Shown here one piece after another: positions 10,954-32,551 of a stretch of 64,000 bases of DNA. The position numbers were made by a program, and so were the translations under genes. The notes below the pieces were generated by a model. It worked only from the letters and a program-made list of their open reading frames with translations. It was not told where the DNA came from and made no database searches. Numbering within the stretch: the stretch's first letter is position 1; each line of letters begins with the position of its first letter. Source of the stretch: an uncultured Flavobacteriaceae bacterium. Its GTDB lineage: Bacteria; Bacteroidota; Bacteroidia; Flavobacteriales; Flavobacteriaceae. The DNA is taken from NCBI GenBank assembly GCA_947488435.1, contig CANKZG010000001.1, forward strand, positions 734,308 to 798,307. Direction: 5' to 3'.

Positions 10954-13338
10954 TCAGGTTTTTCGTTTTAATTTTTTTCCTAAAATAGTGGTGGCAAACG
11001 TTGTAAAAACAACTATGGTAATGGAGCTTATCGGCATAAGAACGGCAGCTATTACCGGGGCTAACTGTCCAGTAATCGCAAAATAAAGCCCAATAACATT
11101 ATAGCAAAGTGATACAAAAAAACTCCATTTGATAATTTGCATCGCTTCTTTTGCCATTCGGAAATAATCTGGGATTCGCAAAAATTGATCCGCATCAAGT
11201 ATCCCATCACACGCTGGAGAAAACACATTAATGTTTTCTGAGATAACAATTCCTATATCGCTCTGCGCCAGAGCTCCTGCATCGTTAAGACCATCACCTA
11301 TCATTACTACCTTTTTCCCTTTGTTTTGTAGGGTTTTTATAAAATTTAGTTTTTGTTCGGGCTTTTGATTAAAATGAAGTTTTGTCCCCCTCGGCAACAA
11401 CTTTTCTAAAGTAGTTTGCTCGCCGCTATTATCTCCAGATAGTACGGTAAGTGTTACTATATCACTTAGTTTTTTAAATACTTGAGAAACTCCCTTTCGG
11501 TATTCATTTTTAAATACAAAGCAGCCTTTATATTCTGAATCTGCACAGATATGAACACTAGTATCTTTAAAGCTGTTATTTATTGCTTTACCTATATAAT
11601 TTGCTGACCCAATCTTAATAGAATGTGACTCCCATTTTCCTTCAATTCCATAACCTATTTCTTCATAAAATTCATCTAGCGTTAAGATATCGTTTGATTT
11701 TAAGATATGGTACAACTGATGACTCAATGGGTGATTTGACGCTCGAAGCGTCTGCTTTAAAATTGCAGTCTCATCAGGGGTTAGTGGTATTCCTTCATAA
11801 CAAATTGTATTATTCTGCGTACTGGTTAGAGTTCCTGTTTTATCAAAAATAGCGGCATCTATTTGCGCCATGCGTTCTATAGTATTGGTGTCTTTTACAT
11901 AAAACTTATGATGACCAAAAATGCGCAGCATATTTCCTAATGTAAAGGGCGCTGCTAAGGCTATTGCACAGGGGCAAGCAATAATCAATACTGCAGTAAA
12001 TACATTCAAAACTTTACTTGGATCATACCACATCCAAAAAATAGAAGCTATAACTGCTATGCTTAAAACTATTAGTGTAAACCGTTTACTTATACTATCT
12101 GTAAGGGTTTGAAATTCAGAAATCTTGTTTTTTGAGAATGCAATATTACTCCACAATTGTGTTAGGTAACTTTGGGAAACAGATTTTAAAGCCTTCATCT
12201 CAAAAGCGCCACCTATTTGTTTTCCTCCTGCAAAGAGTAGGTCCCCTTTTTCTTTAATAACAGCATCTGATTCTCCTGAAACAAAACTATAATCTAGCTG
12301 CGCTCTTCCTTCAAGTAATAGGCCATCTACAGGAATCAACTCCATATTCCTAATCCACAAACGATCTCCTTTCTGAATGCGATATACCGCTATACTTTCC
12401 TCACTTCCATCAGAAAGAATTTTGGTGACCGCCATGGGGAAGTACGATTTGTAATCTCTTTCAAATGAAAGAAAGTTATAGGTCTGTTGTTGAAAAAACC
12501 TTCCTAACAGCAAGAAAAACACAAGTCCTGTAAGGCTATCAAAAAAGCCAGATCCAAGATCAAAAACAATATCTACTGTACTTCGTATAAAGAGCGTAAA
12601 GATCCCTAAAGCAATGGGAACATCAATAGTAAGTAGTTTTAGTCGTAATCCTTTGTATGCAGAAACGAAGTAGTCTCTTGCCGCATAAAACAATACCGGT
12701 AAAGAAAAAGCAAACATCAACCACCTGAACGTGCCTTTATATTGATCTAACCAAAATTCTTGTACTTCAAAATATTCCGGAAATGAAAGAAACATAACAT
12801 TGCCAAATGCAAAGCCCGCGATTCCTAATTGATAGATTAAACTTCGGTTTTTCTTGTCTTGTTTTTGATCATAATCTTCTAGACGTAAATTAGGTTCATA
12901 TCCAATTTTTGCTAAAAGTTCTACGAGATTTTTTAGTGAAAAATCTGTTTTTCGATAGCTTATTCGAACTTTCTTTTTAGGGAAGTTTACCTCTGACTTA
13001 GTGATTGCCGAATGAAGTTGCCCTAGATTTTCAAGAATCCAAATGCAGGAGCTACAATGAATATTTGGAATTCTAAGTTCTACAATTTGATAATTCCCTT
13101 CATTAAAAATCAAGAGCTTCGAAAGAATTTCTTGATTATCCAAAAAATCATAGCTATGGCTAGGCATTGACGGAGTACTTCCTGCTCCACTTTGCAGTTC
13201 GTAATAGTACGTTAAATTATTACTAGAAAAAATCTCATAAACTGTTTTGCATCCATTGCAACAAAAATTCTTTTCATTAAAAACTAATGACACAGTTTCG
13301 CACACATCTCCGCAATGGTAACAGTTTAAGGATTTCAT
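10954..13338 (-). CDS. ccoI: copper-translocating P-type ATPase (FixI/CcoI)
   Basis: 794 aa; N-terminal CxxC metal-binding (CYHCGDVC), CPC motif (ACPCAIA), DKTGTLT phosphorylation site, GDGLNDAGAL hinge. Confidence 0.85.
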   Translation of the reverse strand: MKSLNCYHCGDVCETVSLVFNEKNFCCNGCKTVYEIFSSNNLTYYYELQSGAGSTPSMPSHSYDFLDNQEILSKLLIFNEGNYQIVELRIPNIHCSSCIWILENLGQLHSAITKSEVNFPKKKVRISYRKTDFSLKNLVELLAKIGYEPNLRLEDYDQKQDKKNRSLIYQLGIAGFAFGNVMFLSFPEYFEVQEFWLDQYKGTFRWLMFAFSLPVLFYAARDYFVSAYKGLRLKLLTIDVPIALGIFTLFIRSTVDIVFDLGSGFFDSLTGLVFFLLLGRFFQQQTYNFLSFERDYKSYFPMAVTKILSDGSEESIAVYRIQKGDRLWIRNMELIPVDGLLLEGRAQLDYSFVSGESDAVIKEKGDLLFAGGKQIGGAFEMKALKSVSQSYLTQLWSNIAFSKNKISEFQTLTDSISKRFTLIVLSIAVIASIFWMWYDPSKVLNVFTAVLIIACPCAIALAAPFTLGNMLRIFGHHKFYVKDTNTIERMAQIDAAIFDKTGTLTSTQNNTICYEGIPLTPDETAILKQTLRASNHPLSHQLYHILKSNDILTLDEFYEEIGYGIEGKWESHSIKIGSANYIGKAINNSFKDTSVHICADSEYKGCFVFKNEYRKGVSQVFKKLSDIVTLTVLSGDNSGEQTTLEKLLPRGTKLHFNQKPEQKLNFIKTLQNKGKKVVMIGDGLNDAGALAQSDIGIVISENINVFSPACDGILDADQFLRIPDYFRMAKEAMQIIKWSFFVSLCYNVIGLYFAITGQLAPVIAAVLMPISSITIVVFTTFATTILGKKLKRKT

Positions 13339-19422: not shown

Positions 19423-20433
19423 TCAGAAATATAACTGTGCTGCCTTCGAAAATTTTGTTGCCATCCGTTTACGCAAACGTTCAGGCTGCAATACCTCCAT
19501 GGCCTCTCCAAAACCTAAAATCAGACGTTCCAATTCAAAATTCAATTTCACTTTTATATTAATTTCAACACTTCCATCTTCATTTTCTTTTTCAATAATC
19601 TGTGAATGATGTATAGGTTTAGTCACGACATAAGGAGCATTGTATTTGTCGATCCATAATTTAATATTGGAAGCCCGTTCCCCTTGGTTCACGGTAACAC
19701 CCACAACATCCTTGTAAAAGGTATCTGCATCAAATTCATAATTTGAATAAGAAATAGCGAAATCATAGTCAATCGAAATGATTCGGTCAAGGGCAAGATT
19801 AACTATGCCTTTGTTCTTATTTCCCATTCCTATTAGAAACCATCGGTTGTTAAACTCCTTCAATAAGCAGGGATGGAAAGTAATTACATTGGCAGTAGCA
19901 GCTTTAAAAGACTTGTACTCCACCTTTAAAACCACTTTTTTCTGAATGGCTTGATAGAGTTCGTCAAGCCAATGTAATCCTTTTAGATTCTCGTTCTTAT
20001 CTAGATGAATAATAGATGACTGATGCGTCTTCTCAGTATATACTTTATCTTCTAATCGTTGAATAATTCCACCCAATTCTGAAAACAAAGAAAAGTCTTT
20101 AAACTGCTTTAGCATTTCTACAGTTTCAGAAAGTACATTCATGTCGTTTTCAGTTATGGGGATATCCGTAATGGAATAATCCTCATCTTCGTATTTGTAA
20201 TACTTTCTATCATAAGCAACAATTGGAGCGTTGTAACCTAACTTATCACTTCGCATCAACTGAATATCGAGTTGCACCGTCCGTTTGCTCACATTCACTT
20301 CCCTACCTTCGTATTCATATAAGGCATCTGAACAGGCTTCAATTAAATCATCTAAAGTCCATTGACGGTAGTTGTTTTGAAGGCATTTGTCAATAGTTTT
20401 ATATCGGATTAGGGCGTTTTTGTTGAGGGCCAT
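19423..20433 (-). CDS. HTH + WYL-domain transcriptional regulator (recalled by resemblance)
   Basis: 336 aa; N-terminus MALNKNALIRYKTIDKCLQN...WTLDDLIEACSDAL...VSKRTVQLDIQLMRS matches my recollection of the winged-HTH N-terminus of Bacteroidetes WYL-domain proteins, followed by a ligand-binding-like middle region; co-operonic with the HD protein (1-nt overlap). Confidence 0.55.
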   Translation of the reverse strand: MALNKNALIRYKTIDKCLQNNYRQWTLDDLIEACSDALYEYEGREVNVSKRTVQLDIQLMRSDKLGYNAPIVAYDRKYYKYEDEDYSITDIPITENDMNVLSETVEMLKQFKDFSLFSELGGIIQRLEDKVYTEKTHQSSIIHLDKNENLKGLHWLDELYQAIQKKVVLKVEYKSFKAATANVITFHPCLLKEFNNRWFLIGMGNKNKGIVNLALDRIISIDYDFAISYSNYEFDADTFYKDVVGVTVNQGERASNIKLWIDKYNAPYVVTKPIHHSQIIEKENEDGSVEINIKVKLNFELERLILGFGEAMEVLQPERLRKRMATKFSKAAQLYF

Positions 20434-21136: not shown

Positions 21137-21874
21137 ATGATGAAAAGTAAACTTAAAAATCTAGCAACCGACAAGAAAGTAGACATACTGTTTGCTTGTG
21201 AATCTGGAAGTAGGGCCTGGGACTTTGCTTCCCCAGATAGTGATTTTGATGTTAGATTCGTATATACACATCCAATAGACTGGTATTTGTCAATCTCGGA
21301 AAAACAAGATACCATCGATATAATGGATGGTGATTTTGATGCAGTCGGTTGGGAACTCAGAAAGAAGCTACGCTTACTTAAAAAGTCGAACGTACCTGCA
21401 TTGGAGCATTTATTTTCACCTATAATTTATATTGAAGAAAGTTCATCCATTAAGGAACTGCGAGCGATAGCGAAAGATTGCTTTTCTCCTGTAGCTTGTA
21501 TGTATCACTATTTAAGTATGAGCAAAAAATATGAAGAAAAACTGACTGGTGAAACTGTAAAACTAAAGAGTTTGTTTTATGCATTGCGAACAGCTTTGGC
21601 GGGCAAGTGGATACTTGAACACAATACGATGCCACCTGTTGTTTTTAGCAAGATGTTATCTCTTATAAAAAGGGATGAGGCTGACGAAATAAGACACTTG
21701 ATGACTATAAAATCGGAGAATAACGAAAGTTATTTACATTCCAGAAATGAGAAAGTCGTAAACCTTATAGCAAGTGTTTTAGTTGTTAATGAAAAGTTTG
21801 CAAAATCGCTTTCGGGTGGGAAACCTGATACTGATAGAATAGATAGTTTTTTATATAACACTTTGACCAAATGA
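21137..21874 (+). CDS. DNA-polymerase-beta-superfamily nucleotidyltransferase, most likely the RtcB-associated PF10127 (RlaP-like) family
   Basis: 245 aa; GSRAWDFASPDSDFDVRF = G[SG]-x9-13-DxD nucleotidyltransferase motif. Confidence 0.6.
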   Translation: MMKSKLKNLATDKKVDILFACESGSRAWDFASPDSDFDVRFVYTHPIDWYLSISEKQDTIDIMDGDFDAVGWELRKKLRLLKKSNVPALEHLFSPIIYIEESSSIKELRAIAKDCFSPVACMYHYLSMSKKYEEKLTGETVKLKSLFYALRTALAGKWILEHNTMPPVVFSKMLSLIKRDEADEIRHLMTIKSENNESYLHSRNEKVVNLIASVLVVNEKFAKSLSGGKPDTDRIDSFLYNTLTK

Positions 21875-22923
21875 AAACAATAGAAGAACTAAAAGCTTCA
21901 GGAAATATCATATTTGAATGTATTAGCGGTAGTAGAGCATACGGACTCGCTACCGCTTCTTCTGATACCGATATTCGTGGAGTTTTTGTACTGCCAAAAG
22001 AAAAGTATTATTCATTGGAATATGTAGGTCAAATAAATAATGTCACGAACGATATTGTTTATTATGAACTCAAAAAGTTCATAGAACTTCTTTCAAAAAA
22101 CAACCCTAACATTCTTGAATTGTTAAGTGTTCCTGAAGACTGCATACTCTCAAAGCATCCGCTATTCGATAAAGTCAAGTCTGAGTACTTTCTTTCAAGA
22201 TTGTGCAAAGACACCTTTGCGAATTACGCTTTTACCCAAATAAAAAAGGCAAGAGGATTGAAGAAAAAAATAGTTAATCCTGTTGAAAAAGAACGAAAAT
22301 ATGTTACTGACTTTTGTTTTGTTCGAAAAGAAAAGGGCGCTATGCCTTTGAATACTTTTTTAGAAAATGAAGGTTTCGAAGTGGACCATTGTGGATTGGC
22401 TAAAATAAGTCACATGAAAGATTGTTACAATCTCTTCTACAACCCTTCTATGAAGTATAGTGGCGTTGCAAGAGAAAATGCGAATGAAGTCTGCCTTAGT
22501 TCTATTCCAAAATCGGAAGTGCCAGCGGCTATTTTATATTTCAATCGAGATGGTTATTCATCCTATTGTAAAAAGTATAAAGAGTATTGGTCTTGGGTAG
22601 AAAAGAGAAATGATGAACGTTACAAGAGTAATATCTCACATAGCAAGAACTACGATGCTAAAAACATGATGCACACTTTTCGTCTTTTACATATGGCCAA
22701 AGAAATAGGGGCTGATAATAAAATTATGGTAAAAAGACCAGACCGAGATTTTCTGCTAGCTGTAAAAAATGCTGAATTCGAATATGAAGAGTTGGTAGAA
22801 AGAGCTGAAAAGTTAAAATCAGAATTGGAGGTTACATATGAAAAAGCTGATTTAATGGAACGCCCAGACTTGGATATAATAAATGAACTATTGGTTGAAA
22901 TAAGAGCTCAATTCTACGAATAA
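21871..22923 (+). CDS. second PF10127-like nucleotidyltransferase (paralog; ATGA overlap with upstream gene)
   Basis: 350 aa; ISGSRAYGLATASSDTDIRGVFVLP motif; extra C-terminal helical domain. Confidence 0.6.
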   Translation: MKTIEELKASGNIIFECISGSRAYGLATASSDTDIRGVFVLPKEKYYSLEYVGQINNVTNDIVYYELKKFIELLSKNNPNILELLSVPEDCILSKHPLFDKVKSEYFLSRLCKDTFANYAFTQIKKARGLKKKIVNPVEKERKYVTDFCFVRKEKGAMPLNTFLENEGFEVDHCGLAKISHMKDCYNLFYNPSMKYSGVARENANEVCLSSIPKSEVPAAILYFNRDGYSSYCKKYKEYWSWVEKRNDERYKSNISHSKNYDAKNMMHTFRLLHMAKEIGADNKIMVKRPDRDFLLAVKNAEFEYEELVERAEKLKSELEVTYEKADLMERPDLDIINELLVEIRAQFYE

Positions 22924-23040: not shown

Positions 23041-24908
<1,868 letters not shown>

Positions 24909-25058
24909 AATTATTCTCATATTTGCAACTGGATAAATAAATATAACAAGAGAAAATAGTAAAATATGCCAGATTATTTAAATCACATACCGGACGCTAA
25001 GAAGCTAGGATTGCATCGAATTGATGGGTAGACACTATTGAGAAAACGATACATTACT

Positions 25059-25088
25059 AGAGCGTCCAAGAAATTAGGCGCTTTTTTT
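25059..25088 (+). terminator. rho-independent terminator after the rtcB operon
   Basis: AGAGCGTCC-aagaaatta-GGCGCT followed by TTTTTTTT; homologous to the terminator at 28484. Confidence 0.5.
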
Positions 25089-25264
25089 TATATACATTTT
25101 TTAGAGAATTCTCAAAATTCTAAAAGAATGCTATTTGAAAGCTAAGCATTTGAAAAACAGCAAATTGATGAATTATGCTGCTATCTGTTAAACAACGGAC
25201 CAGGATACTTATGTTTTGATTTTATTATAACTAATTGATAATCAGTAATTTAAATTATATTTTC

Positions 25265-25295
25265 TTGTGTAATCCAAAAATCCGTTTTAGCTTTG
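25265..25295 (+). promoter_or_regulatory. Bacteroidetes sigmaA-type promoter (-33 TTG ... -7 TAgcTTTG), cassette A
   Basis: TTG at 25265-25267, 20-nt spacer, TAGCTTTG at 25288-25295; the whole block is duplicated at 28701-28731. Confidence 0.45.
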
Positions 25296-25299
25296 CATC

Positions 25300-25474
25300 G
25301 CAATACAGCAACAAAATTTATTAACTGAAGTATATATGACTTTTTCAAACACATATCAGAATACACTAAAAGCACCAGGTGCTTTATTAGTGTCGCTTCA
25401 GGACTTCTATAATACATAAAGCTACTATAGTTAATGATAGAAAGTCCGAAGCCCTAAAGTTTCGGACTTTTTTA
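25300..25474 (+). ncRNA. candidate leader / small RNA A (~170 nt) ending in a terminator-like hairpin upstream of rtcB2-prfH
   Basis: Promoter-to-hairpin unit; hairpin AGTCCGAA-gccctaaagt-TTCGGACT + TTTTT at 25443-25474; no ORF; 5' ~80 nt homologous to cassette B. Confidence 0.35.
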
Positions 25475-25576
25475 TGCTCTAATTTTTAGTGACACATCTT
25501 TCCGAAACATTTTATCAAATCAAGTATTGCTCTTCCATTTTTGGAACAGCCGTACTATTCCTTAAAATGAAATCTC

Positions 25577-26968
25577 ATGGGAAAGAAATTAAGCGGAAAG
25601 GACCTAATCAAATTGGGTTTTCCAAAGAACAATAGTATCAATATTACATTAGGTCAAATCAATAGATACCATAAGCGAAAAAATAAAGAGCAGGTATTGA
25701 TGGAAGCTAAAAAAGTATTGTTGCATCCTGAGGACTATCAAGGTGATGGGGTTTGGGGTAAGATAGCAGAAAGCTTGTTAGATCCAGTTGTGGTCAAAAA
25801 ACAAGTGCTGAATTCGGCAAGAGCACCTTTCCAAATCTATGGCGAGAACGAAATAGAGGAGCAAGCAAAATACCAATTGTATGATGCTTTAAAACTTCCG
25901 ATTTCTGTTGCTGGGGCTTTGATGCCCGATGCCCATAGTGGTTATGGCTTGCCTATCGGGGGTGTTTTGGCTACTAAGAATGCGGTGATTCCATATGGAG
26001 TTGGTGTTGATATCGGTTGTCGCATGTGTTTGACTATTTATCCGATTCCGGTTTCTTACCTCAAAGGAAAGAAACATCAATTGGCAAATATGCTCTCGGA
26101 GCATACCAAGTTCGGAATGCGGGAAACCCATAAGATAAAGCATGACCACGAAATCTTTGAGCGCGATGAATTTAAAAATATTCCGCTGATAAAAAGATTA
26201 AAGGATAAAGCGTACAAGCAATTGGGAACCTCAGGTGGTGGAAATCACTTTGTAGAATTCGGAAAGGTCACTATTACAGATGACGAGAACGAATGGGGGT
26301 TGAAATTGGGCGAATATCTAGGTGTGCTTTCCCATAGTGGTTCAAGAGGATTAGGTGCAAACATTGCAAAACATTACACCTATTTGGCAACAAAGCAATG
26401 TCCGTTACCCAAACATGTGCAGCATTTGGCATGGTTGGATTTGAATACCCATGACGGACAAGAATATTGGTTAGCTATGAATCTAGCAGGTGATTATGCA
26501 AAAGCATGTCACGATGATATTCACGCAAGACTAGCGAAACTTTTGGGTACAAAACCAGTAGTTAAAATAGATAACCATCACAATTTTGCTTGGAAACAAG
26601 AGGTAAATGGTGCCGAGTGTATTGTGCATAGAAAGGGAGCAACTCCCGCCGCTAAAGGCGAGTTGGGAATTATTCCTGGGTCAATGACAGCATCGGGTTA
26701 CATCGTAAAAGGTTTGGGCAATACAGAGAGTTTAAACTCTGCTTCCCATGGTGCTGGACGGCTTTTTTCAAGACGAAAGTGTAAAGAAACGTTTACACGA
26801 AGCGAAATTAAAAAGCAACTAGACTCAAATGAGGTAACACTAATTGGTGGAGGAATTGACGAAGCACCCATGGCCTACAAAAACATTGAAAAGGTCATGG
26901 CAAATCAACAAGAATTGGTTGAAGTACTCGGAACCTTTACACCCAAAATAGTACGAATGGATAAATAA
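25577..26968 (+). CDS. rtcB: RtcB-family RNA ligase (paralog 2, RtcB2-like, paired with prfH)
   Basis: 463 aa; DAHSGYGLPIGG, GGGNHFVEFG, SHSGSRGLG, NHHNFAW, SHGAGRLFS. Confidence 0.85.
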   Translation: MGKKLSGKDLIKLGFPKNNSINITLGQINRYHKRKNKEQVLMEAKKVLLHPEDYQGDGVWGKIAESLLDPVVVKKQVLNSARAPFQIYGENEIEEQAKYQLYDALKLPISVAGALMPDAHSGYGLPIGGVLATKNAVIPYGVGVDIGCRMCLTIYPIPVSYLKGKKHQLANMLSEHTKFGMRETHKIKHDHEIFERDEFKNIPLIKRLKDKAYKQLGTSGGGNHFVEFGKVTITDDENEWGLKLGEYLGVLSHSGSRGLGANIAKHYTYLATKQCPLPKHVQHLAWLDLNTHDGQEYWLAMNLAGDYAKACHDDIHARLAKLLGTKPVVKIDNHHNFAWKQEVNGAECIVHRKGATPAAKGELGIIPGSMTASGYIVKGLGNTESLNSASHGAGRLFSRRKCKETFTRSEIKKQLDSNEVTLIGGGIDEAPMAYKNIEKVMANQQELVEVLGTFTPKIVRMDK

Positions 26969-27060: not shown

Positions 27061-27753
27061 ATGGAAAAGATAATTCAAATAACAACAGGTAGAGGCCCAG
27101 CGGAATGTAGCTGGGTCGTTGCCAAAGTACTCAAGCGATTTTTGGAAGAGACCAAATCGAGAGGATTTAAACATAGTATCCTCCATCGAGAAACAGGAAG
27201 CCAAAACGGGACAGTACAATCGGTGACTATCCGCTTGACAGGAAAAAATATGGAAGCATTTTTAGCAACTTGGTTGGGTACTATTCAGTGGATAGGCGTT
27301 TCAACATTTCGAAAATACCATAAACGAAAGAATTGGTTTATCGGGGCTTTCGAATTGAAACAAACGCAAACTACGAAAGTGGATGAGCGAGATATTTCGT
27401 TTCAAACCATGCGGAGCACCGGTCCTGGTGGCCAGAATATCAACAAGATTAATTCTGCTGTTCGGGCAATTCATACCCCCACAGGAGTACAAGTAGTTGC
27501 GATGGATAGTCGTTCTCAACATCAAAACAAAAAACTAGCAATAGCTCGGTTAAAAGAAAAAGTAAATGAAGCTAACCTAGAGCAGTTAAAGGGAAGCATG
27601 ACAGATCAATGGGAGAACCATTTGAATCTGCAACGAGGAAATCCGGTCCGAGTTTTTAAGGGTACAGATTTCAAACATCAAAAAGTGGATAAAAGTTATA
27701 AACCAAAACGGCAAAAGCTAAAAAACGATTTCAAACATCAAAAATGGGACTGA
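27061..27753 (+). CDS. prfH: peptide chain release factor H (RF-H)
   Basis: 230 aa class-I release-factor GGQ-domain protein (STGPGGQNINK) lacking a full codon-recognition domain; immediately downstream of an RtcB paralog as in the E. coli rtcB2-prfH pair. Confidence 0.75.
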   Translation: MEKIIQITTGRGPAECSWVVAKVLKRFLEETKSRGFKHSILHRETGSQNGTVQSVTIRLTGKNMEAFLATWLGTIQWIGVSTFRKYHKRKNWFIGAFELKQTQTTKVDERDISFQTMRSTGPGGQNINKINSAVRAIHTPTGVQVVAMDSRSQHQNKKLAIARLKEKVNEANLEQLKGSMTDQWENHLNLQRGNPVRVFKGTDFKHQKVDKSYKPKRQKLKNDFKHQKWD

Positions 27754-28298
27754 CAATAGCCGATACTTATTACTTAAAGGCACGAGCAGCAATGGGAGGT
27801 TTTTGCCCTGATTGGGACGAAGTTTGTGAATCACTGAACTACGCCCTGTCTTACGATGAAAATCATTGTGCCTCCCTTTGTCTTTTAGGTAAAGTTTATG
27901 CAGGAAATTTGAATCAGTATACTGAAGCTTTCGATTGCTTTGACAAAGTAATTGCAATTGACAGTTACTATATGGATGTCTATCCTGCCTACGCAAAATA
28001 TCTTATTTGGGCCGATGAAATTGAAAGAGCAACTAAACTAATTGCTTTTGCTCTTACCATAAAAGGGATATCAAAAGGAAGTTTATTTTGGCTTTCCGCG
28101 TATGCGTCTGAAACCAAGGAAGCTTATAAAGATGCTCTGAAACATCTTAACAAAGCTAAGAAGTATTCCTATAATGACGATTACTTTTCTTTCATTGAAG
28201 ATGAAGAAAATAGAATTAAAAAGAAATTGAAATTGGATAAATCCAAAGTAAAAAAGAAGAAATCTTCATCTAAAAAAAAGAAGAAAAAGAATAAATAG
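27744..28298 (+). CDS. TPR-like protein with C-terminal poly-lysine tail
   Basis: 184 aa; helical repeats; ends KKKLKLDKSKVKKKKSSSKKKKKKNK encoded by A-rich tracts; overlaps prfH stop by 10 nt. Confidence 0.5.
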   Translation: MGLTIADTYYLKARAAMGGFCPDWDEVCESLNYALSYDENHCASLCLLGKVYAGNLNQYTEAFDCFDKVIAIDSYYMDVYPAYAKYLIWADEIERATKLIAFALTIKGISKGSLFWLSAYASETKEAYKDALKHLNKAKKYSYNDDYFSFIEDEENRIKKKLKLDKSKVKKKKSSSKKKKKKNK

Positions 28299-28483
28299 TA
28301 GTAACACAACGTTTAAAAATAACATCTTTGTAAAACAAATGACACCGAGAAAGTTACATATCATCCAACAAATAGAGCTTTGGCTCTGCGATTTTCGCTC
28401 AGAATATAGTGAGCGAAACGGGCGCTATGTGACTTTATCCAACAGTTGATTCTATGTAAATCACTTATTAAACGATAAAATGA

Positions 28484-28737: not shown

Positions 28738-28948
28738 CATAAATTATAAACCCATTACCAATGGAATCTTTAAAAAGACATATACAATTATTGGAACTAC
28801 ATCTCTGTTCGCCGAAATGGTTTGAACGGTTTTATAGTGATCAACTGTCCATTTGTAAACAAAGGAGAAATACGTGTATCATGTGTTGACGTCATAGACA
28901 CCATTCACATATGTACAGAGCATCTCCGATAAAGAGGTGCTTTTTTTA
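28738..28948 (+). ncRNA. candidate leader / small RNA B (~200 nt) ending in a hairpin + T7 tract 22 nt before the first tRNA
   Basis: Hairpin GCATCTC-cgataaa-GAGGTGC + TTTTTTT at 28920-28948; 5' part homologous to leader A. Confidence 0.35.
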
Positions 28949-28969: not shown

Positions 28970-29057
28970 GGAAGAGCAAGCCAAAGGGCGGTGGCCACAC
29001 TCTTGAAAAGTGTTCGGAGTAACCAGTCTCGTGTGGGTTCGACTCCCACCTCTTCCG
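28970..29057 (+). tRNA. tRNA-Ser(TGA), class II
   Basis: Hand-folded: acceptor GGAAGAG/CTCTTCC, anticodon arm ACACT-CTTGAAA-AGTGT, long variable arm, T-arm GTGGG-TTCGACT-CCCAC, G73; 88 nt. Confidence 0.8.
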
Positions 29058-29062
29058 CAACT

Positions 29063-29149
29063 GGAGGGTAGGCAAATACTGGTTTGTTGCGCTCGCCTGC
29101 TAAGCAAGTCTACCATAAGGTAGTGAAGGTTCAATTCCTTTGCCCTCCG
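29063..29149 (+). tRNA. tRNA-Ser(GCT), class II; the only array member with an encoded CCA
   Basis: Acceptor GGAGGGT/GCCCTCC (one G-U), loop CTGCTAA, variable-arm hairpin CTACC-ataa-GGTAG, G73 then CCA; one C-A mismatch in anticodon stem. Confidence 0.7.
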
Positions 29150-29156
29150 CCAAATT

Positions 29157-29229
29157 GACAAGGTGGCTGAATAGTTAAGGCAATGGTCTGCAAAATCATT
29201 TTTTATGAGTTCGAATCTCATCCTTGTCT
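29157..29229 (+). tRNA. tRNA-Cys(GCA)
   Basis: 73 nt; acceptor GACAAGG/CCTTGTC, loop CTGCAAA, T-arm ATGAG-TTCGAAT-CTCAT, U73 (Cys identity). Confidence 0.8.
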
Positions 29230-29240
29230 CTAAATATTAT

Positions 29241-29323
29241 GGAAGTATTGAGCAATTGGCTGGCTCGCTTGACTGTAAATCAGGTTCAGAAATGACATGT
29301 AGGTTCGAGTCCTGCTGCTTCCA
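29241..29323 (+). tRNA. tRNA-Tyr(GTA), class II
   Basis: Acceptor GGAAGTA/TGCTTCC, anticodon arm CTTGA-CTGTAAA-TCAGG, long variable arm, A73. Confidence 0.75.
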
Positions 29324-29327
29324 CAAC

Positions 29328-29398
29328 GCGTCTGTGGTGTAATGGTAGCATTTGGGTCTCCAAAACCTATGATTGAGGTTCGAATCCTTAAGGACGCG
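29328..29398 (+). tRNA. tRNA-Trp(CCA)
   Basis: Anticodon arm TGGGT-CTCCAAA-ACCTA as in E. coli tRNA-Trp, T-arm TGAGG-TTCGAAT-CCTTA, G73; one mismatch at the acceptor-stem base. Confidence 0.65.
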
Positions 29399-29401
29399 CA
29401 A

Positions 29402-29474
29402 AGTACCGTAGTTCAAAGGCTAGAGCGCCCGACTGTCTATCGGGAAGGTACGGGTTCGAGTCCCGTCGGTACTG
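29402..29474 (+). tRNA. tRNA-Asp(GTC) with unusual U37
   Basis: Acceptor AGTACCG/CGGTACT, anticodon arm CCCGA-CTGTCTA-TCGGG, T-arm ACGGG-TTCGAGT-CCCGT resembles E. coli tRNA-Asp; G73. Confidence 0.65.
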
Positions 29475-29479
29475 CGAAA

Positions 29480-29552
29480 CTGGGAAGATAACGGTGGTTA
29501 GTTTACCCGCTTTGGAAGCGGGAGGTCGCAAGTTCGAATCTTGCTTCCCAGA
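29480..29552 (+). tRNA. tRNA-Pro(TGG)
   Basis: Acceptor CTGGGAA/TTCCCAG, anticodon arm CCCGC-TTTGGAA-GCGGG, T-arm GCAAG-TTCGAAT-CTTGC, A73; only 5 nt after tRNA-Asp. Confidence 0.8.
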
Positions 29553-29614
29553 CGACTTAGTCAAATCAAGTTTACTTGAATTTGATTAGCAAGGAGTAGT
29601 TGTAAGAAAGACGA

Positions 29615-29636
29615 AGTCAATCTTGCTTCTCAGACT
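29615..29636 (+). pseudogene. 3' remnant of tRNA-Pro (T-loop 3' half + acceptor 3' strand), direct repeat of 29531-29552
   Basis: AGTCAATCTTGCTTCTCAGAC vs GTTCGAATCTTGCTTCCCAGAC (17/20). Confidence 0.5.
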
Positions 29637-29639
29637 TTT

Positions 29640-29712
29640 GCTCTGTTCGTATAATGGTTAAGTACGCCTGACTTTCTATCAGGAAATAGGGGTTCGATTC
29701 CCCTACAGAGTA
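29640..29712 (+). tRNA. tRNA-Glu(TTC) with unusual U37
   Basis: Acceptor GCTCTGT/ACAGAGT (G1-U72), D-stem CGTA/TACG, anticodon arm CCTGA-CTTTCTA-TCAGG, T-arm AGGGG-TTCGATT-CCCCT. Confidence 0.65.
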
Positions 29713-29717
29713 CAAAA

Positions 29718-29790
29718 TGAGGTATAACTCAGTTGGTAGAGTACCGTGCTTTTAACACGGGAGTCTTAGGTTCGAGTCCTAATGCCTCAA
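29718..29790 (+). tRNA. tRNA-Lys(TTT)
   Basis: U1-A72 acceptor TGAGGTA/TGCCTCA, D-arm ACTC-AGTTGGTA-GAGT, anticodon arm CCGTG-CTTTTAA-CACGG, A73. Confidence 0.75.
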
Positions 29791-29795
29791 CAATT

Positions 29796-29868
29796 GCAGG
29801 GATGGCGAAATGGCAAACGCAGCTGGTTTAGAACCAGTACTCTGAGAGTTCGAATCTCTCTCCCTGTA
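29796..29868 (+). tRNA. type-I tRNA with Leu anticodon TAG (Leu-like D-arm, variable arm only 5 nt)
   Basis: Acceptor GCAGGGA/TCCCTGT, D-arm GCG-AAATGGCAAA-CGC (Leu-like), anticodon arm GCTGG-TTTAGAA-CCAGT, variable ACTCT, T-arm GAGAG-TTCGAAT-CTCTC, A73. Confidence 0.5.
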
Positions 29869-29875
29869 CTATGAT

Positions 29876-29949
29876 GCCCCACTAGCCCAACCGGCAGAGG
29901 CAAAGGACTTAAAATCCTTAAAGTCCAAGTTCGAATCTTGGGTGGGGTA
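29876..29949 (+). tRNA. type-I tRNA with Leu anticodon TAA (variable arm 5 nt)
   Basis: Anticodon arm AAGGA-CTTAAAA-TCCTT nearly identical to E. coli tRNA-Leu(UAA) arm, but variable region only AAAGT; T-arm CCAAG-TTCGAAT-CTTGG, A73. Confidence 0.5.
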
Positions 29950-29954
29950 CAAAT

Positions 29955-30079
29955 AAGCTTATGGTGTAATGGATAGCACGCAGGATTTAACTCACGCTCT
30001 TTTTACTTGAAATAAGGAGTTCGTGAATGCAGAAAAGCATTTCTAACCCTGAGGTATGAGTTCAAATCTTGTTAGGCTT
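29955..30079 (+). ncRNA. tRNA-like element (125 nt): canonical acceptor/D-arm/T-arm with a ~60-nt insertion in the anticodon region
   Basis: 5' AAGCTTA-TG-GTG..CAC D-arm (11-mer TGGTGTAATGG shared with tRNA-Trp); 3' ATGAG-TTCAAAT-CTTGT T-arm + TAGGCTT acceptor strand pairing 7/7 (one G-U) with the 5' end; split CAGG/CCTG anticodon stem. Confidence 0.3.
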
Positions 30080-30085
30080 GCAAAT

Positions 30086-30157
30086 AGACCCGTGATGTAA
30101 CGGTTAGCATACAAGGTTTTGATCCTTGTTGTAAAGGTTCAAATCCTTTCGGGTCTT
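30086..30157 (+). tRNA. tRNA-Gln(TTG)
   Basis: Acceptor AGACCCG/CGGGTCT 7/7, D-stem ATGT/GCAT, anticodon arm CAAGG-TTTTGAT-CCTTG, T-arm AAAGG-TTCAAAT-CCTTT. Confidence 0.7.
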
Positions 30158-30162
30158 CAAAT

Positions 30163-30236
30163 GGTGTCTCTAGCTTATTTTGGTAAAGCGTCCCACTGTG
30201 AATGGGAAGAACAGGGTTCGAGTCCCCGAGTACACC
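30163..30236 (+). tRNA. tRNA-His(GTG) with encoded G-1 pairing C73
   Basis: Anticodon arm TCCCA-CTGTGAA-TGGGA, D-stem GCTT/AAGC, extra 5' G opposite C73 (His hallmark); two mismatches near the acceptor-stem base. Confidence 0.6.
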
Positions 30237-30242
30237 CAAAAG

Positions 30243-30315
30243 GGAACAGTAGCAAAGATGATCAATGCGGCGGATTGAAGATCCGACGATACAGGTTCGA
30301 GTCCTGTCTGTTCCA
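30243..30315 (+). tRNA. tRNA-Phe(GAA)
   Basis: Acceptor GGAACAG/CTGTTCC 7/7, anticodon arm GCGGA-TTGAAGA-TCCGA, T-arm ACAGG-TTCGAGT-CCTGT, A73. Confidence 0.7.
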
Positions 30316-30319
30316 CAAC

Positions 30320-30392
30320 AGGAGTATAGTTCAATTGGACAGAACGCTGGGCTACGAACCTAGAAATGCGAGTTCGAGTCTTGCTACTCCTA
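30320..30392 (+). tRNA. tRNA-Arg(ACG)
   Basis: Acceptor AGGAGTA/TACTCCT 7/7, D-stem GTTC/GAAC, anticodon arm CTGGG-CTACGAA-CCTAG, T-arm GCGAG-TTCGAGT-CTTGC, A73. Confidence 0.8.
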
Positions 30393-30413
30393 CTAAAACA
30401 AGAGAAATTTTAG

Positions 30414-30498: not shown

Positions 30499-30530
30499 CC
30501 CTGCAGCAAATTTAATGCTGCAGGGTTTTG
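30499..30530 (+). terminator. strong rho-independent terminator closing the first tRNA block
   Basis: 9-bp GC-rich stem CCCTGCAGC-aaatttaat-GCTGCAGGG followed by TTTTG. Confidence 0.7.
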
Positions 30531-30780: not shown

Positions 30781-30920
30781 ACAATATCAAGCTGGTCTTG
30801 TTGGGTGTTTCTGTATAGCACTATTGTGTGAAGCGTTGCCATAGGGTATAATGTTTTCATGTACAACTTGACTTGATGGTTTCGATTGTTCGCCAAAAAA
30901 CGATCACCACTCTGTGAGTC

Positions 30921-31012
30921 ATGGGTTCGAATCCCATCAGTCCCAAATGGGACTGTAGTTCAGTTAGGTTAGAACAACAGACGGATGCGCAGGTTCGACT
31001 CCTGCCAGCGGC
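30921..31012 (+). pseudogene. tRNA debris: T-arm + 3' acceptor (ATGGG-TTCGAAT-CCCAT-CAGTCCC-A) immediately followed by its matching 5' acceptor + D-arm (GGGACTG-TA-GTTC...GAAC) and a second T-arm lacking an anticodon arm
   Basis: Hand-folded; looks like a permuted or tandem-decayed tRNA pair; no complete cloverleaf. Confidence 0.4.
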
Positions 31013-31023
31013 CACTTTTTTTA

Positions 31024-31067
31024 GGCCCTGTAGCTCAGTTGGCTAGAGCACTACACTCATAATGTAG
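31024..31067 (+). pseudogene. 5' two-thirds of a tRNA-Met/Ile2(CAT): acceptor 5' strand, D-arm, anticodon arm; T-arm and 3' end missing
   Basis: GGCCCTG-TA-GCTC-agttggcta-GAGC-A-CTACA-CTCATAA-TGTAG, then no TTCGA T-loop and no CAGGGCC partner. Confidence 0.45.
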
Positions 31068-31450
31068 GTTTCTAAAGCTGACCATCTTTTAAAACTGGTC
31101 TCCAAGCCCTGTTAGGCTTAAAATGACAAAAACCGTAGGTATAAGTCAGTTGGTTTTTCTTCGGATAAATCAACAGTCTTGAAACTACTTTGAAATAGTG
31201 AATTTTTGATGCGAAAGGCAATTTCTTTTTGAATATCCTTCCCTCGGAAAAACCAATAAAAAGTATTGGCAACGTCGACCGAAGCATACCAAAAAAACAA
31301 ATCGTAACGAGCTTCGAAAACCAATATTTCCGTAACGGATAGATGAGTTATAGTTGCGGTTTTTTAAAAGAGAAAAACAAATTAATACTAAATAAGAAAT
31401 CGTTTAACCCGTTCGTCCGTCACTAGACTGGCGGACACAAATTTTAAGTA

Positions 31451-32551
31451 ATGAAAAGAGTAAGAATCAATGCAGGAAGAGTAGGTTTGGTCTTCAAAAG
31501 AGGCGATTACCAAAGAGTAATTACCCAAGGTACACACTGGGTAAGCTTCAGAAATATGGTTAAGGTATATGACCTTACCAAGGCCTTTGTTGCCCCTATA
31601 GCATTAGAAATCTTGCTACAGGACCAGGGCTTGGAAGCTATGTTGCATATCATCGAAGTTAAGGATGCTGAATTGGCTCTAGTTTCTGAAAACGGAAACT
31701 TGAAACAAGTCCTTACTGCTGGTAAGTACGCTTTCTGGAAAGGTCTGATAAACTTCGAGTTCGTTATGGCGGACTTGAGTAAGATCTATATCACTGAAGC
31801 TATCAGCAAAGCAATGTTGAGCCATCCTCAGTTGCGAGCGTATGTTCGTACTTTGGAAGTTGCGGCTTACGAAAAGGCTGTCCTCTTGGTTGATGATGTT
31901 TATGTCAAAACGCTGGAAAGTGGTACCTACCATTTCTGGAAGAACGACATCTCTATCAAAATTGCCAGAGCGGACATGCGTCAATTGCAATTGGAGATTT
32001 CTGGTCAAGAATTGTTGACCAAAGACAAGGCTGCTATTCGTATCAATTTCTATACACAGTATAAAGTTATAGATATCGAGAAGGCTTTGCTAGGCAACAA
32101 AGACTATGAAAAGCAGTTGTATATCGCAATGCAATTAGTATTACGGACCTATATTGGCACCTATACCTTGGATGAGCTTCTAGAACGAAAAGAAAGCATC
32201 GCTGAAGCTGTGTTTGGGGATATCAAAACTGCCGCTACCCAATTGGGTGTTGCAATTTTGAGTTGTGGTATTCGTGATGTTATCCTGACCGGTGAAATGA
32301 AAGATATTATGAACCAGGTTTTGGTTGCTCAAAAGAGAGCTCAAGCGAATATCATTACCCGACGTGAAGAAACTGCGTCTACCAGAAGCTTGCTGAACAC
32401 CGCGAAGTTGATGGAAGACAACGAAATGCTCTACAAACTGAAGGAAATGGAATACGTTGAAAAGATCGCCGAAAAAATCGGTGAGATTACCGTCTCTGGC
32501 AATGGAGGTATGGTAAAACAATTGAAAGAGATTTTCTCAGTCAATAAGTAA
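31451..32551 (+). CDS. SPFH/band-7 (slipin-like) domain protein with extra N-terminal domain
   Basis: 366 aa; C-terminal half has SPFH-like pattern (…VLVAQKRAQANIITRREETAS…). Confidence 0.55.
   Translation: MKRVRINAGRVGLVFKRGDYQRVITQGTHWVSFRNMVKVYDLTKAFVAPIALEILLQDQGLEAMLHIIEVKDAELALVSENGNLKQVLTAGKYAFWKGLINFEFVMADLSKIYITEAISKAMLSHPQLRAYVRTLEVAAYEKAVLLVDDVYVKTLESGTYHFWKNDISIKIARADMRQLQLEISGQELLTKDKAAIRINFYTQYKVIDIEKALLGNKDYEKQLYIAMQLVLRTYIGTYTLDELLERKESIAEAVFGDIKTAATQLGVAILSCGIRDVILTGEMKDIMNQVLVAQKRAQANIITRREETASTRSLLNTAKLMEDNEMLYKLKEMEYVEKIAEKIGEITVSGNGGMVKQLKEIFSVNK

Follow-up and report, generated by a model that had tools for sequence, protein, structure and literature searches.

Short-arm tRNA-Leu genes in an accessory tRNA array beside an RNA-repair island of Flavobacteriaceae

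Two adjacent tRNA genes with leucine anticodons (UAG and UAA) and without the long variable arm were found in a stretch of 64,000 nucleotides (hereafter the window; contig CANKZG010000001.1, assembly GCA_947488435.1) from an uncultured Flavobacteriaceae bacterium which, judging by its PrfH homologues, appears to fall in the genus Maribacter. Both are type I tRNA-Leu genes and lie in an accessory array of tRNA genes, directly downstream of an island that encodes the RNA- and ribosome-repair proteins RlaP, RtcB, and PrfH. Short-arm tRNA-Leu is as a phenomenon already published and not unprecedented, what is new here being the phylum (Bacteroidota) and the genomic context. We consider it rather probable, with real room for the alternatives weighed below, that the pair encodes functional tRNAs charged by leucyl-tRNA synthetase (LeuRS), putative spares in a mobile, phage-related array that would act as a backup when translation is damaged.

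Sequence and structure of the two tRNA-Leu genes

The program ARAGORN calls a tRNA-Leu(tag) at 29796–29869 (74 nt) and a tRNA-Leu(taa) at 29876–29950 (75 nt), and the full Rfam model RF00005 (gathering score 29 bits) matches the UAG gene with 63.6 bits (E 5e-14) and the UAA gene with 58.0 bits (E 2e-12). The original prediction, made from the letters of the window, had placed two tRNAs with these anticodons at 29796–29949, and ARAGORN, Rfam, and a reading of the sequence bear it out to the base. The UAG gene reads GCAGGGA UG GCGAAAUGGCAAACGC A GCUGG UUUAGAA CCAGU ACUCU GAGAG UUCGAAU CUCUC UCCCUGU A, and the UAA gene GCCCCAC UA GCCCAACCGGCAGAGGC A AAGGA CUUAAAA UCCUU AAAGU CCAAG UUCGAAU CUUGG GUGGGGU A. 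Both have an acceptor stem of 7 bp and an anticodon stem of 5 bp, with anticodon loops UUUAGAA (UAG gene) and CUUAAAA (UAA gene), and the variable regions (ACUCU and AAAGU, respectively) are, as had been read before, of five nucleotides and followed by a canonical T-arm (GUUCGAAUC). That both are relatives of tRNA-Leu is also upheld: both genes have a Leu-type D-arm (3-bp stem, 13:22 mismatch, AAYYGGYA-A loop) and share G1.U72, U8, A14, A15, G18G19, U48, and A73, with an A15:U48 pair being possible.

The genes measure 73 nt (UAG) and 74 nt (UAA) to the discriminator, which leaves no space for a hidden long variable arm, and minimum free energy folds recover the acceptor, anticodon, and T helices (z −2.5 for the UAG gene and −2.1 for the UAA gene), so that refolding uncovered no missed arm. 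A sequence error in the anticodon loops is also unlikely: the island and the array are present in Maribacter sp. 2307UL18-2 (locus L132) and in an Allomuricauda (L138), where the UAG gene recurs unchanged and only two D-loop bases set the UAA gene apart. Type I tRNA-Leu are characterized by a YAA or NAG anticodon, a variable region of 4–5 nt with no extra stem and about 73–75 nt to the discriminator, and furthermore by a cloverleaf under selection, A73, U8:A14, A15:U48, G18G19, and a canonical T-loop (element list from PMC9976931 and PMC6614811). In anticodon, variable-region length, cloverleaf, and LeuRS and tertiary elements both window genes agree with this description. Their top matches among the 333 tRNAs of all the loci retrieved are Leu genes. 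An origin of the UAG gene from another isotype was considered, as it has a fair score against one tRNA-Trp of the array, but this is explained by a shared generic T-arm, and the idea was rejected because the best matches, the discriminator, the D-arm, and the acceptor stem are all of the Leu type.

Selection on the cloverleaf and on the leucine identity elements

Type I tRNA-Leu genes, including the window pair, are under selection for the cloverleaf, and the window pair keeps every known bacterial LeuRS identity element. In an alignment of 43 diverse type I Leu genes on which the cloverleaf was imposed, 98.1% of the cells are paired and double compensatory changes occur in 19 of the 20 pairs. 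The covariation score reaches 0.918, versus 0.209 for shuffled alignments (0/500 shuffles reach the observed value) and 0.12–0.21 with slid partners. Among the unique type I sequences A73, U8, and U48 (the last base of the variable loop) are each present in 111 out of 111, and the variable loop has 5 nt in 104 of them, while AA at positions 14–15 and GG at 18–19 are invariant in the alignment. The determinants of the Escherichia coli LeuRS are A73, A14, A15:U48, G18G19, and the D/T-loop core, the long arm not being one of them (PMC9976931), and minimal arm-less substrates are reported to be still active (Larkin 2002, as relayed in PMC9976931).

Distribution in bacteria, arrays, and phages

The original prediction also held that bacterial tRNA-Leu is invariably class II. 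This part has to be abandoned, as it is contradicted by the type I tRNA-Leu(CAA) of Streptomyces coelicolor, by a tRNA-Leu(UAG) of a Mycobacterium cluster (see below for both), and by the short genes recovered here. A scan of bacteria, with one genome per species, for the D-arm pattern of the UAA gene (GCCCAAYYGGYAGAGGC) gave at least 120 loci, in which at least 103 tRNAs called by ARAGORN carry the pattern. All are tRNA-Leu genes of 74–77 nt; among the matches listed there is no long one and the anticodons are only of Leu (UAA 66, CAA 17, UAG 9, CAG 7, GAG 4). Most stand alone in chromosomes of Actinomycetota (Nocardia, Mycobacterium, Gordonia, Corynebacterium, Amycolatopsis, Arthrobacter, and others), and others, among the matches listed, come from Planctomycetota, Myxococcota, Poribacteria, and Rokubacteria. 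At least seven sit in arrays of 8–20 tRNAs, one of which, a cyanobacterial array from Microcoleus (L122), carries three type I Leu genes.

Within the phage collection the window pair matches 44 records, and a T5-like type I Leu(UAA) gene matches 193, with at least 80% of the gene covered in 105 of these. In the eleven phage loci inspected the tRNA-Leu genes are 74–78 nt long and mostly annotated just as tRNA-Leu. Short genes range over Demerecviridae (T5-like), Schitoviridae (N4-like), Otagovirus, Stephanstirmvirinae, Crassvirales, Herelleviridae, and large Vibrio phages, and those of the Demerecviridae, Schitoviridae, Crassvirales, Herelleviridae, and large Vibrio phages are the nearest sequence relatives of the window genes, annotated phage tRNA-Leu genes being 78–85% identical to the UAA gene. 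They are kept by about 100 phages of Klebsiella, Enterobacter, Cronobacter, and Salmonella, and the crAss-like phage cr111_1 (Crassvirales; its record names no host) has two, of 75 and 78 nt. Other tRNA arrays and phage genomes, where a search had been suggested originally, do contain short-arm tRNAs with Leu anticodons, as the genome, phage, and viral scans show. Among 5,426 E. coli genomes, BLAST (E ≤ 0.01) found nothing that matches a T5-like type I tRNA-Leu, which is uninformative for a 77-nt query in 28 Gb. No publication was found on short-arm tRNA-Leu in phages or on its link to defense, a weak negative given that literature coverage is incomplete.

A metagenome-assembled genome (MAG) of Planctomycetota (L016, 3550–3912) contains three tandem type I tRNA-Leu genes (CAG, UAA, and GAG), two of which start with unusual pairs (the CAG gene with A1-U72, the UAA gene with G1-C72 and A2-U71); an aberrant tRNA-Tyr-like call of 100 nt follows them. 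Only the 5′ halves (acceptor stem and D-arm) of type I tRNA-Leu-like genes are seen in loci L017, L021, L024, L052, L090, and L124, from Streptomyces, Virgisporangium, Nonomuraea, Armatimonadota, and an uncultured Actinomycetota MAG, and a common non-tRNA sequence (...CTCAGACTCTTGCTCCAGACTCAGCAT...) comes after the half-gene in five out of six (not in L021). Either gene interruption or duplication of the attachment site of an integrating element may account for them. In cr111_1 (L008, 2040–2492) a DpsA-like gene is located inside the phage tRNA cluster, where it adjoins a type I tRNA-Leu gene. In cyanobacteria dpsA is among the genes that share their regulation with the L-array and rtcB (PMC8421152), and this hints at a module common to phage tRNA clusters and bacterial arrays.

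Two lineages and the G1.U72 pair

The window pair combines two different lineages, the UAA copy deriving from an old family whose members are all short and the UAG copy from one of phages. The former belongs to the GCCCAAYYGGYAGAGGC D-arm lineage, common to actinobacterial, array-borne, and phage type I tRNA-Leu, which are all short among the matches listed. The UAG gene does not have this pattern, and its own D-arm (GCGAAAUGGCAAACGC) is that of a phage lineage with long and short members. When viral contigs were searched for the latter D-arm, both long (UAA 26, UAG 8, CAA 6, GAG 4) and short tRNA-Leu genes (UAG 17, CAA 1) appeared, with lengths running continuously from 73 to 87 nt. Among them, a viral type II gene (L233) has the acceptor stem and D-arm of the UAG gene together with a variable region longer by 11 nt, a counterpart that upholds the loss of the long arm proposed originally. 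Long and short members, the continuum of lengths, and L233 together indicate that the arm was shortened or lost independently in the lineage of the UAG gene; judged by these sequences, short-arm tRNA-Leu arose at least twice.

Another shared trait is the first pair. G1.U72 is found in 19/19 phage and Flavobacteriaceae type I copies, and in the viral GCGAAAUGGCAAACGC set it is present in 14/19 short versus 7/43 long genes (Fisher p 2e-5, relatedness ignored). In bacteria, among the matches listed, five of the seven array copies have it versus 13 of the 85 stand-alone ones. The tRNA-Leu(UAA) of E. coli likewise has G1-U72, and this pair touches the CP1 domain of LeuRS (PMC6614811).

The tRNA array and its genomic context

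The features of the locus are listed in Table 1. The array (15 genes called by ARAGORN plus one interrupted) packs 16 genes into 1.42 kb of one strand, with spacers mostly of 2–10 nt, in the order Ser(UGA), Ser(GCU), Cys, Tyr, Trp, Asp, Pro, Glu, Lys, Leu(UAG), Leu(UAA), Arg(UCU) (interrupted), Gln, His, Phe, and Arg(ACG). Its Ser and Tyr tRNAs retain long arms, and the Glu-Lys pair is 75–78% identical to adjacent tRNA-Lys/tRNA-Glu genes of T4-like (~171-kb) Serratia and Erwinia phages. Compared with the arrays defined by Tran et al. (at least 20 tRNA genes, at least two per kb; PMC4758250), it has the density but is smaller, with its 15 called genes plus the interrupted one. It also shows the patchy, accessory distribution and the linkage to RNA-repair or translation genes such as rtcB that mark L-arrays.

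Table 1. Features of the window around the tRNA-Leu pair, with positions in the window
Feature	Position	Strand	Evidence and remarks
Putative regulator with WYL/WCX domain	19423..20433	−	Pfam; divergent from the repair operon; position kept in L132, L133, L136, and L138
RlaP nucleotidyltransferases (two)	21137–21874, 21871–22923	+	Pfam PF10127, 236 and 100 bits
Divergent RtcB	23053–24441	+	Pfam RtcB, 127 bits
RtcB RNA ligase	25577–26968	+	Pfam RtcB, 282 bits
Release-factor homologue PrfH	27061–27753	+	NCBIfam TIGR03072 (prfH equivalog), 229 bits vs cutoff 167
TPR-like protein, usual neighbor of PrfH	27744..28298	+	Weak TPR Pfam matches
Conserved non-coding element with a 42-codon open reading frame (ORF)	28761–28889	+	96–98% conservation; precedes the hairpin at 28917–28943
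Terminator-like hairpin with T-run	28917..28943	+	26 nt upstream of the first array tRNA
Accessory tRNA array, 15 ARAGORN-called genes and one interrupted	28970..30393	+	ARAGORN; orthologous arrays
Type I tRNA-Leu(UAG), 5-nt variable loop, G1.U72, A73, without encoded CCA	29796..29868	+	ARAGORN, Rfam
Type I tRNA-Leu(UAA), 5-nt variable loop, G1.U72, A73, D-arm GCCCAACCGGCAGAGGC, without encoded CCA	29876..29949	+	ARAGORN, Rfam
tRNA-Arg(UCU) with a 54-nt insertion on the 5′ side of the anticodon stem-loop	29953..30085	+	Alignment with intact orthologues; not called by ARAGORN
Terminator-like hairpin	30499..30525	+	~100 nt downstream of the last array tRNA
tRNA-like and Y-RNA-like modules, all below Rfam thresholds	30875..31110	+	Rfam; after the array terminator
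SPFH/Band_7 protein, downstream end of the island in all array-bearing relatives	31451..32551	+	Pfam; same neighbor in L132, L134, and L136

The insertion in the tRNA-Arg(UCU) gene is flanked by a short ATTT repeat, and the intact orthologues (Arg(tct), 73 nt) are found at 12957–13029 in L132 and 20427–20499 in L138. Its length falls short of a group I intron, and two RtcB ligase genes are near; the gene is probably disrupted and inactivated rather than spliced. Between tRNA-Pro and tRNA-Glu there is a gap of 86 nt (29554–29639), of equal size in L132, containing a fragment similar to the T-arm and acceptor 3′ end of the preceding tRNA-Pro (gaagtcaatcttgcttctcaga), which looks like the remnant of a duplicated or lost tRNA.

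Upstream of the array, a second intergenic element (28339–28449, with a 36-codon ORF) lies, like the one at 28761–28889, between the PrfH/TPR operon and the array. Both are conserved at 96–98% across Maribacter and Allomuricauda, above the neighboring proteins, and a terminator-like hairpin comes after each. The ORF at 28761–28889 was considered as a codon-sensing leader peptide or attenuator with an amino-acid set mirroring the array, but it was rejected as coding. Among three orthologues of the 42-codon ORF the 10 codon differences are all non-synonymous (10/10), with none at the third position, and a variable site in it or nearby has Ala in one orthologue and Val and Gly in another. The element folds no better than shuffles (z −1.5). 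Both intergenic elements are candidates for regulatory RNAs or for promoter-leader regions of the array.

The modules beyond the array terminator (30875–31110) gave sub-threshold matches to YrlA (38 and 29 bits, gathering score 69), tRNA (29 and 28 bits), and tmRNA (17 bits, acceptor/T-arm-like), and include the 5′ part of a tRNA with a CAU anticodon without a proper T-arm. They are conserved in Maribacter sp. 2-571 (L134, 14240–14520; GCA_050589625.1). As the island of an Aquimarina relative (L135) includes a Ro60/TROVE gene, they may be Y-RNA-type partners.

As to the repair genes, the TPR gene is a conserved neighbor of PrfH (PMC6514570). RtcB2-PrfH is reported to mend ribosome damage of the colicin-E3 type, and RlaP to restore damaged tRNA 3′ ends. 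The flanks of the window encode a cbb3 oxidase, type IX secretion system (T9SS) proteins, two-component regulators, and repair enzymes; annotation with Pfam and other profiles found no phage structural or integrase genes in them, which places the array in a chromosome and not in a phage.

The array is not evenly distributed among relatives of the window genome. A related array from Kordia (L136) includes a type I Leu(UAG) gene whose anticodon stem differs by two double compensatory changes, and that of Maribacter sp. 2-571 has decayed, with the Lys, Leu, Leu, and Arg genes gone. In Maribacter forsetii (L133), Aquimarina (L135), and strain R38 (L137) the repair genes are present without it. Being present, decayed, or absent among relatives that keep the repair genes, the array is an accessory module. 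In the decayed one (L134, 11900–12900), GGTTC-CCCGAAGYNTCGGGG-CC takes the place of the T-loop GGTTCGAATCC in at least seven tRNA-like genes. It is a small repeated hairpin, inserted at one and the same structural position of each, and ARAGORN no longer calls these genes. A gene of the CCA-adding-enzyme type (PolyA_pol, PF01743) is located between the two RtcB genes of M. forsetii (L133, 6081–7469) and Allomuricauda (L138, 6473–7852); the counterpart site of the window (24396–25577) contains, apart from a gap, just a 170-aa ORF with no family assignment, and the array tRNAs have no encoded CCA.

Comparison with known systems

The best known example of a type I tRNA-Leu is the tRNA-Leu(CAA) of S. 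coelicolor, which is leucylated by the single LeuRS of this organism (ScoLeuRS) via its leucine-specific domain (LSD) and could not be deleted (Fan 2019, NAR, PMC6614811). Human mitochondrial LeuRS also leucylates it, but E. coli LeuRS (EcLeuRS) is unable to do so in vitro, the ability having been mapped to the LSD of ScoLeuRS (PMC6614811). In its Leu anticodon, variable loop of 5 nt, and canonical cloverleaf it resembles the window genes, of which the UAA gene falls in the same D-arm family as type I CAA and UAA genes of actinomycetes. However, the gene of Streptomyces stands alone and has an essential housekeeping role, and the actinobacterial copies have mainly G1-C72, whereas the window pair, from Bacteroidota, is accessory and carried by an array, with G1.U72 and the anticodons UAA and UAG.

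A tRNA-Leu(UAG) with a short variable loop has also been mentioned in a tRNA cluster of Mycobacterium mucogenicum/phocaicum (Behra 2019, PMC6582537). It resembles the window gene at 29796–29868 in being array-encoded and short-looped, and there it exists beside a normal housekeeping isoacceptor with a long loop. The case is nevertheless from another phylum, with no RtcB-PrfH link reported, and as it was mentioned in passing the likeness is one of description only. The paper on MenT3 states that only tRNA-Leu-2, -3, and -5 of Mycobacterium tuberculosis have long loops, from which we infer that the remaining tRNA-Leu species of this organism have short ones.

Phage tRNA-Leu genes agree with the window pair in the D-arm, in combining G1.U72 with A73 in 19/19 copies, and in belonging to tight tRNA clusters, but they are in virus genomes and mostly encode the CCA. 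As for the cyanobacterial L-arrays, that of Anabaena PCC 7120 is silent under standard growth, induced by translational stress, co-regulated with rtcB, and aids survival (PMC8421152). L-arrays (the Anabaena trn operon, PMC8421152, and those of Tran et al., PMC4758250) and the window array are alike in being dense, on one strand, made of diverged tRNAs, patchy, and set among many genes of RNA repair and translation, with rtcB as one of them. The Anabaena array is regulated through direct repeats and TrcR, whereas in the window flanking terminator-like hairpins are seen; the variable-arm status of array Leu tRNAs is not mentioned in PMC8421152 or PMC4758250. Finally, the tRNA-Leu(UUR/CUN) of animal mitochondria and E. 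coli tRNA-Leu engineered to lack the arm (Larkin 2002, in the summary given by PMC9976931) are also Leu acceptors without the long arm, with an identity that resides in A73, A14, and the D/T-loop tertiary core (PMC9976931). The mitochondrial ones, served by a LeuRS of their own, have D and T loops that are degenerate, and the engineered ones are artificial, while the loops of the window tRNAs are fully canonical.

Possible functions of the short-arm tRNA-Leu pair

In the reading that we favor, the host LeuRS would charge both tRNAs, the UAA tRNA would decode UUA/UUG, and the UAG tRNA CUA and possibly other CUN codons. Both genes would be supernumerary copies on a horizontally mobile array sharing ancestry with phage tRNA clusters and coupled to the RlaP-RtcB-PrfH RNA/ribosome-repair island. 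The array, presumably expressed or induced under stress, would most likely provide substitute tRNAs whenever the translation machinery suffers damage or stress, a role that is suggested by the gene neighborhood and by analogy with cyanobacterial L-arrays. Some observations weigh against this. Given that EcLeuRS failed on the S. coelicolor type I tRNA-Leu(CAA) and that the ability lies in the LSD of ScoLeuRS, charging by the flavobacterial LeuRS is not guaranteed, although, were the hosts unable to use them, it would be difficult to see why about 100 enterobacterial phages and cr111_1 keep short tRNA-Leu genes. On the other hand, the decay of the array (interrupted Arg(UCU), Pro-like fragment, and loss of Leu, Lys, and Arg genes in Maribacter sp. 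2-571) means that the Leu genes are dispensable and could be drifting.

One alternative is that the genes would be relics in decay, left over neutrally from an array of phage origin and no longer expressed or put to use. The interrupted Arg(UCU) neighbor, the terminator-like hairpin immediately upstream, the aberrant T-loops and missing Leu genes of the array in L134, and the absence of the array from several relatives would all fit. Yet both Leu cloverleaves are flawless, with high Rfam scores, the genes are identical or nearly so across Maribacter and Allomuricauda although PrfH is only ~84–91% identical among them, and the Kordia copy has changed by compensatory pairs and not by random substitutions, which makes us regard the relics as improbable. 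We are similarly doubtful that the pair are non-translating decoys or sponges, tRNA-shaped but uncharged, that absorb tRNA-targeting nucleases or signal damage. Such a sponge role was proposed by the authors of the cyanobacterial L-array study, who saw cleavage of operonic tRNAs (PMC8421152), and it could be accommodated with the tRNA-like and Y-RNA-like modules just downstream of the array, the lack of an encoded CCA, and the one type I tRNA-Leu that EcLeuRS does not charge. But a decoy for anticodon nucleases need not keep A73, a possible A15:U48, G18G19, and perfect acceptor and T-arms across more than 100 sequences from many phyla, bait for an enzyme recognizing tRNA-Leu would be expected to retain the long arm, and the homologous type I tRNA-Leu of Streptomyces is an essential, translating tRNA.

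The loss of the arm could also be an adaptation in itself, producing Leu spares resistant to nucleases or toxins, which would escape enzymes gripping the class II architecture while still being charged and translating. Human SLFN11 reportedly cuts tRNAs of type II, Schlafen nucleases of bacteria reportedly take part in phage defense, phage tRNAs are known to evade anticodon nucleases, short-arm tRNA-Leu is frequent in phages and mobile arrays, with at least two origins, and counter-ribotoxin repair genes adjoin the array. Against this, no nuclease or toxin that needs the tRNA-Leu arm is known from either Bacteroidota or the phage hosts, long arms persist in the Ser and Tyr tRNAs of the same array, type I tRNA-Leu stands alone in many Actinomycetota chromosomes, where an escape role is unneeded, and genome economy or drift could equally explain the loss. 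We give this proposal a small chance, and an equally small one to its general form: that arm loss in phage and array tRNA-Leu would be a recurrent, selected escape from arm-gripping enzymes (MenT-type nucleotidyltransferases, Schlafen-type or other tRNases), with G1.U72 compensating for LeuRS and the array acting as a set of toxin-proof spares together with RtcB, PrfH, and RlaP. A reassignment of identity, by which another synthetase would charge these tRNAs and cause deliberate mistranslation or recoding, seems very improbable. It is true that LeuRS does not read the anticodon, so that anticodon and identity are separable, and that losing the class II arm removes one barrier to class I-type synthetases. 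However, all the LeuRS determinants are kept, there is no G3:U70, no G73, and no long arm for SerRS, the anti-SerRS pair C2:G71 is present, and the anticodons of the family are only of Leu (UAA, CAA, UAG, CAG, GAG) in 103/103 among the matches listed. Out of the three functions put forward originally, a LeuRS substrate is therefore the one that best fits the conserved identity elements, and no positive evidence emerged here for a decoy or for a reassigned tRNA.

Implications

The textbook rule that tRNA-Leu is of class II had already been corrected twice in the literature, and hence the window pair alone adds little novelty. What is added is mainly scope, as short-arm tRNA-Leu is not restricted to Streptomyces but occurs in chromosomes of Actinomycetota, in tRNA arrays of at least four phyla, and in about 200 phages of unrelated families, and along with it come a repeated origin, the enrichment in G1.U72, and the coupling to an RNA-repair island. 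The failure of EcLeuRS on one such tRNA, set against the enterobacterial phages that carry genes of this kind, poses a testable question on LeuRS recognition, and why mobile elements favor the arm-less form is another concrete question raised by these data. For the Flavobacteriaceae, the array of putative spare tRNAs joined to the RtcB-PrfH-RlaP island would provide a natural system in which to study the response to translation damage.

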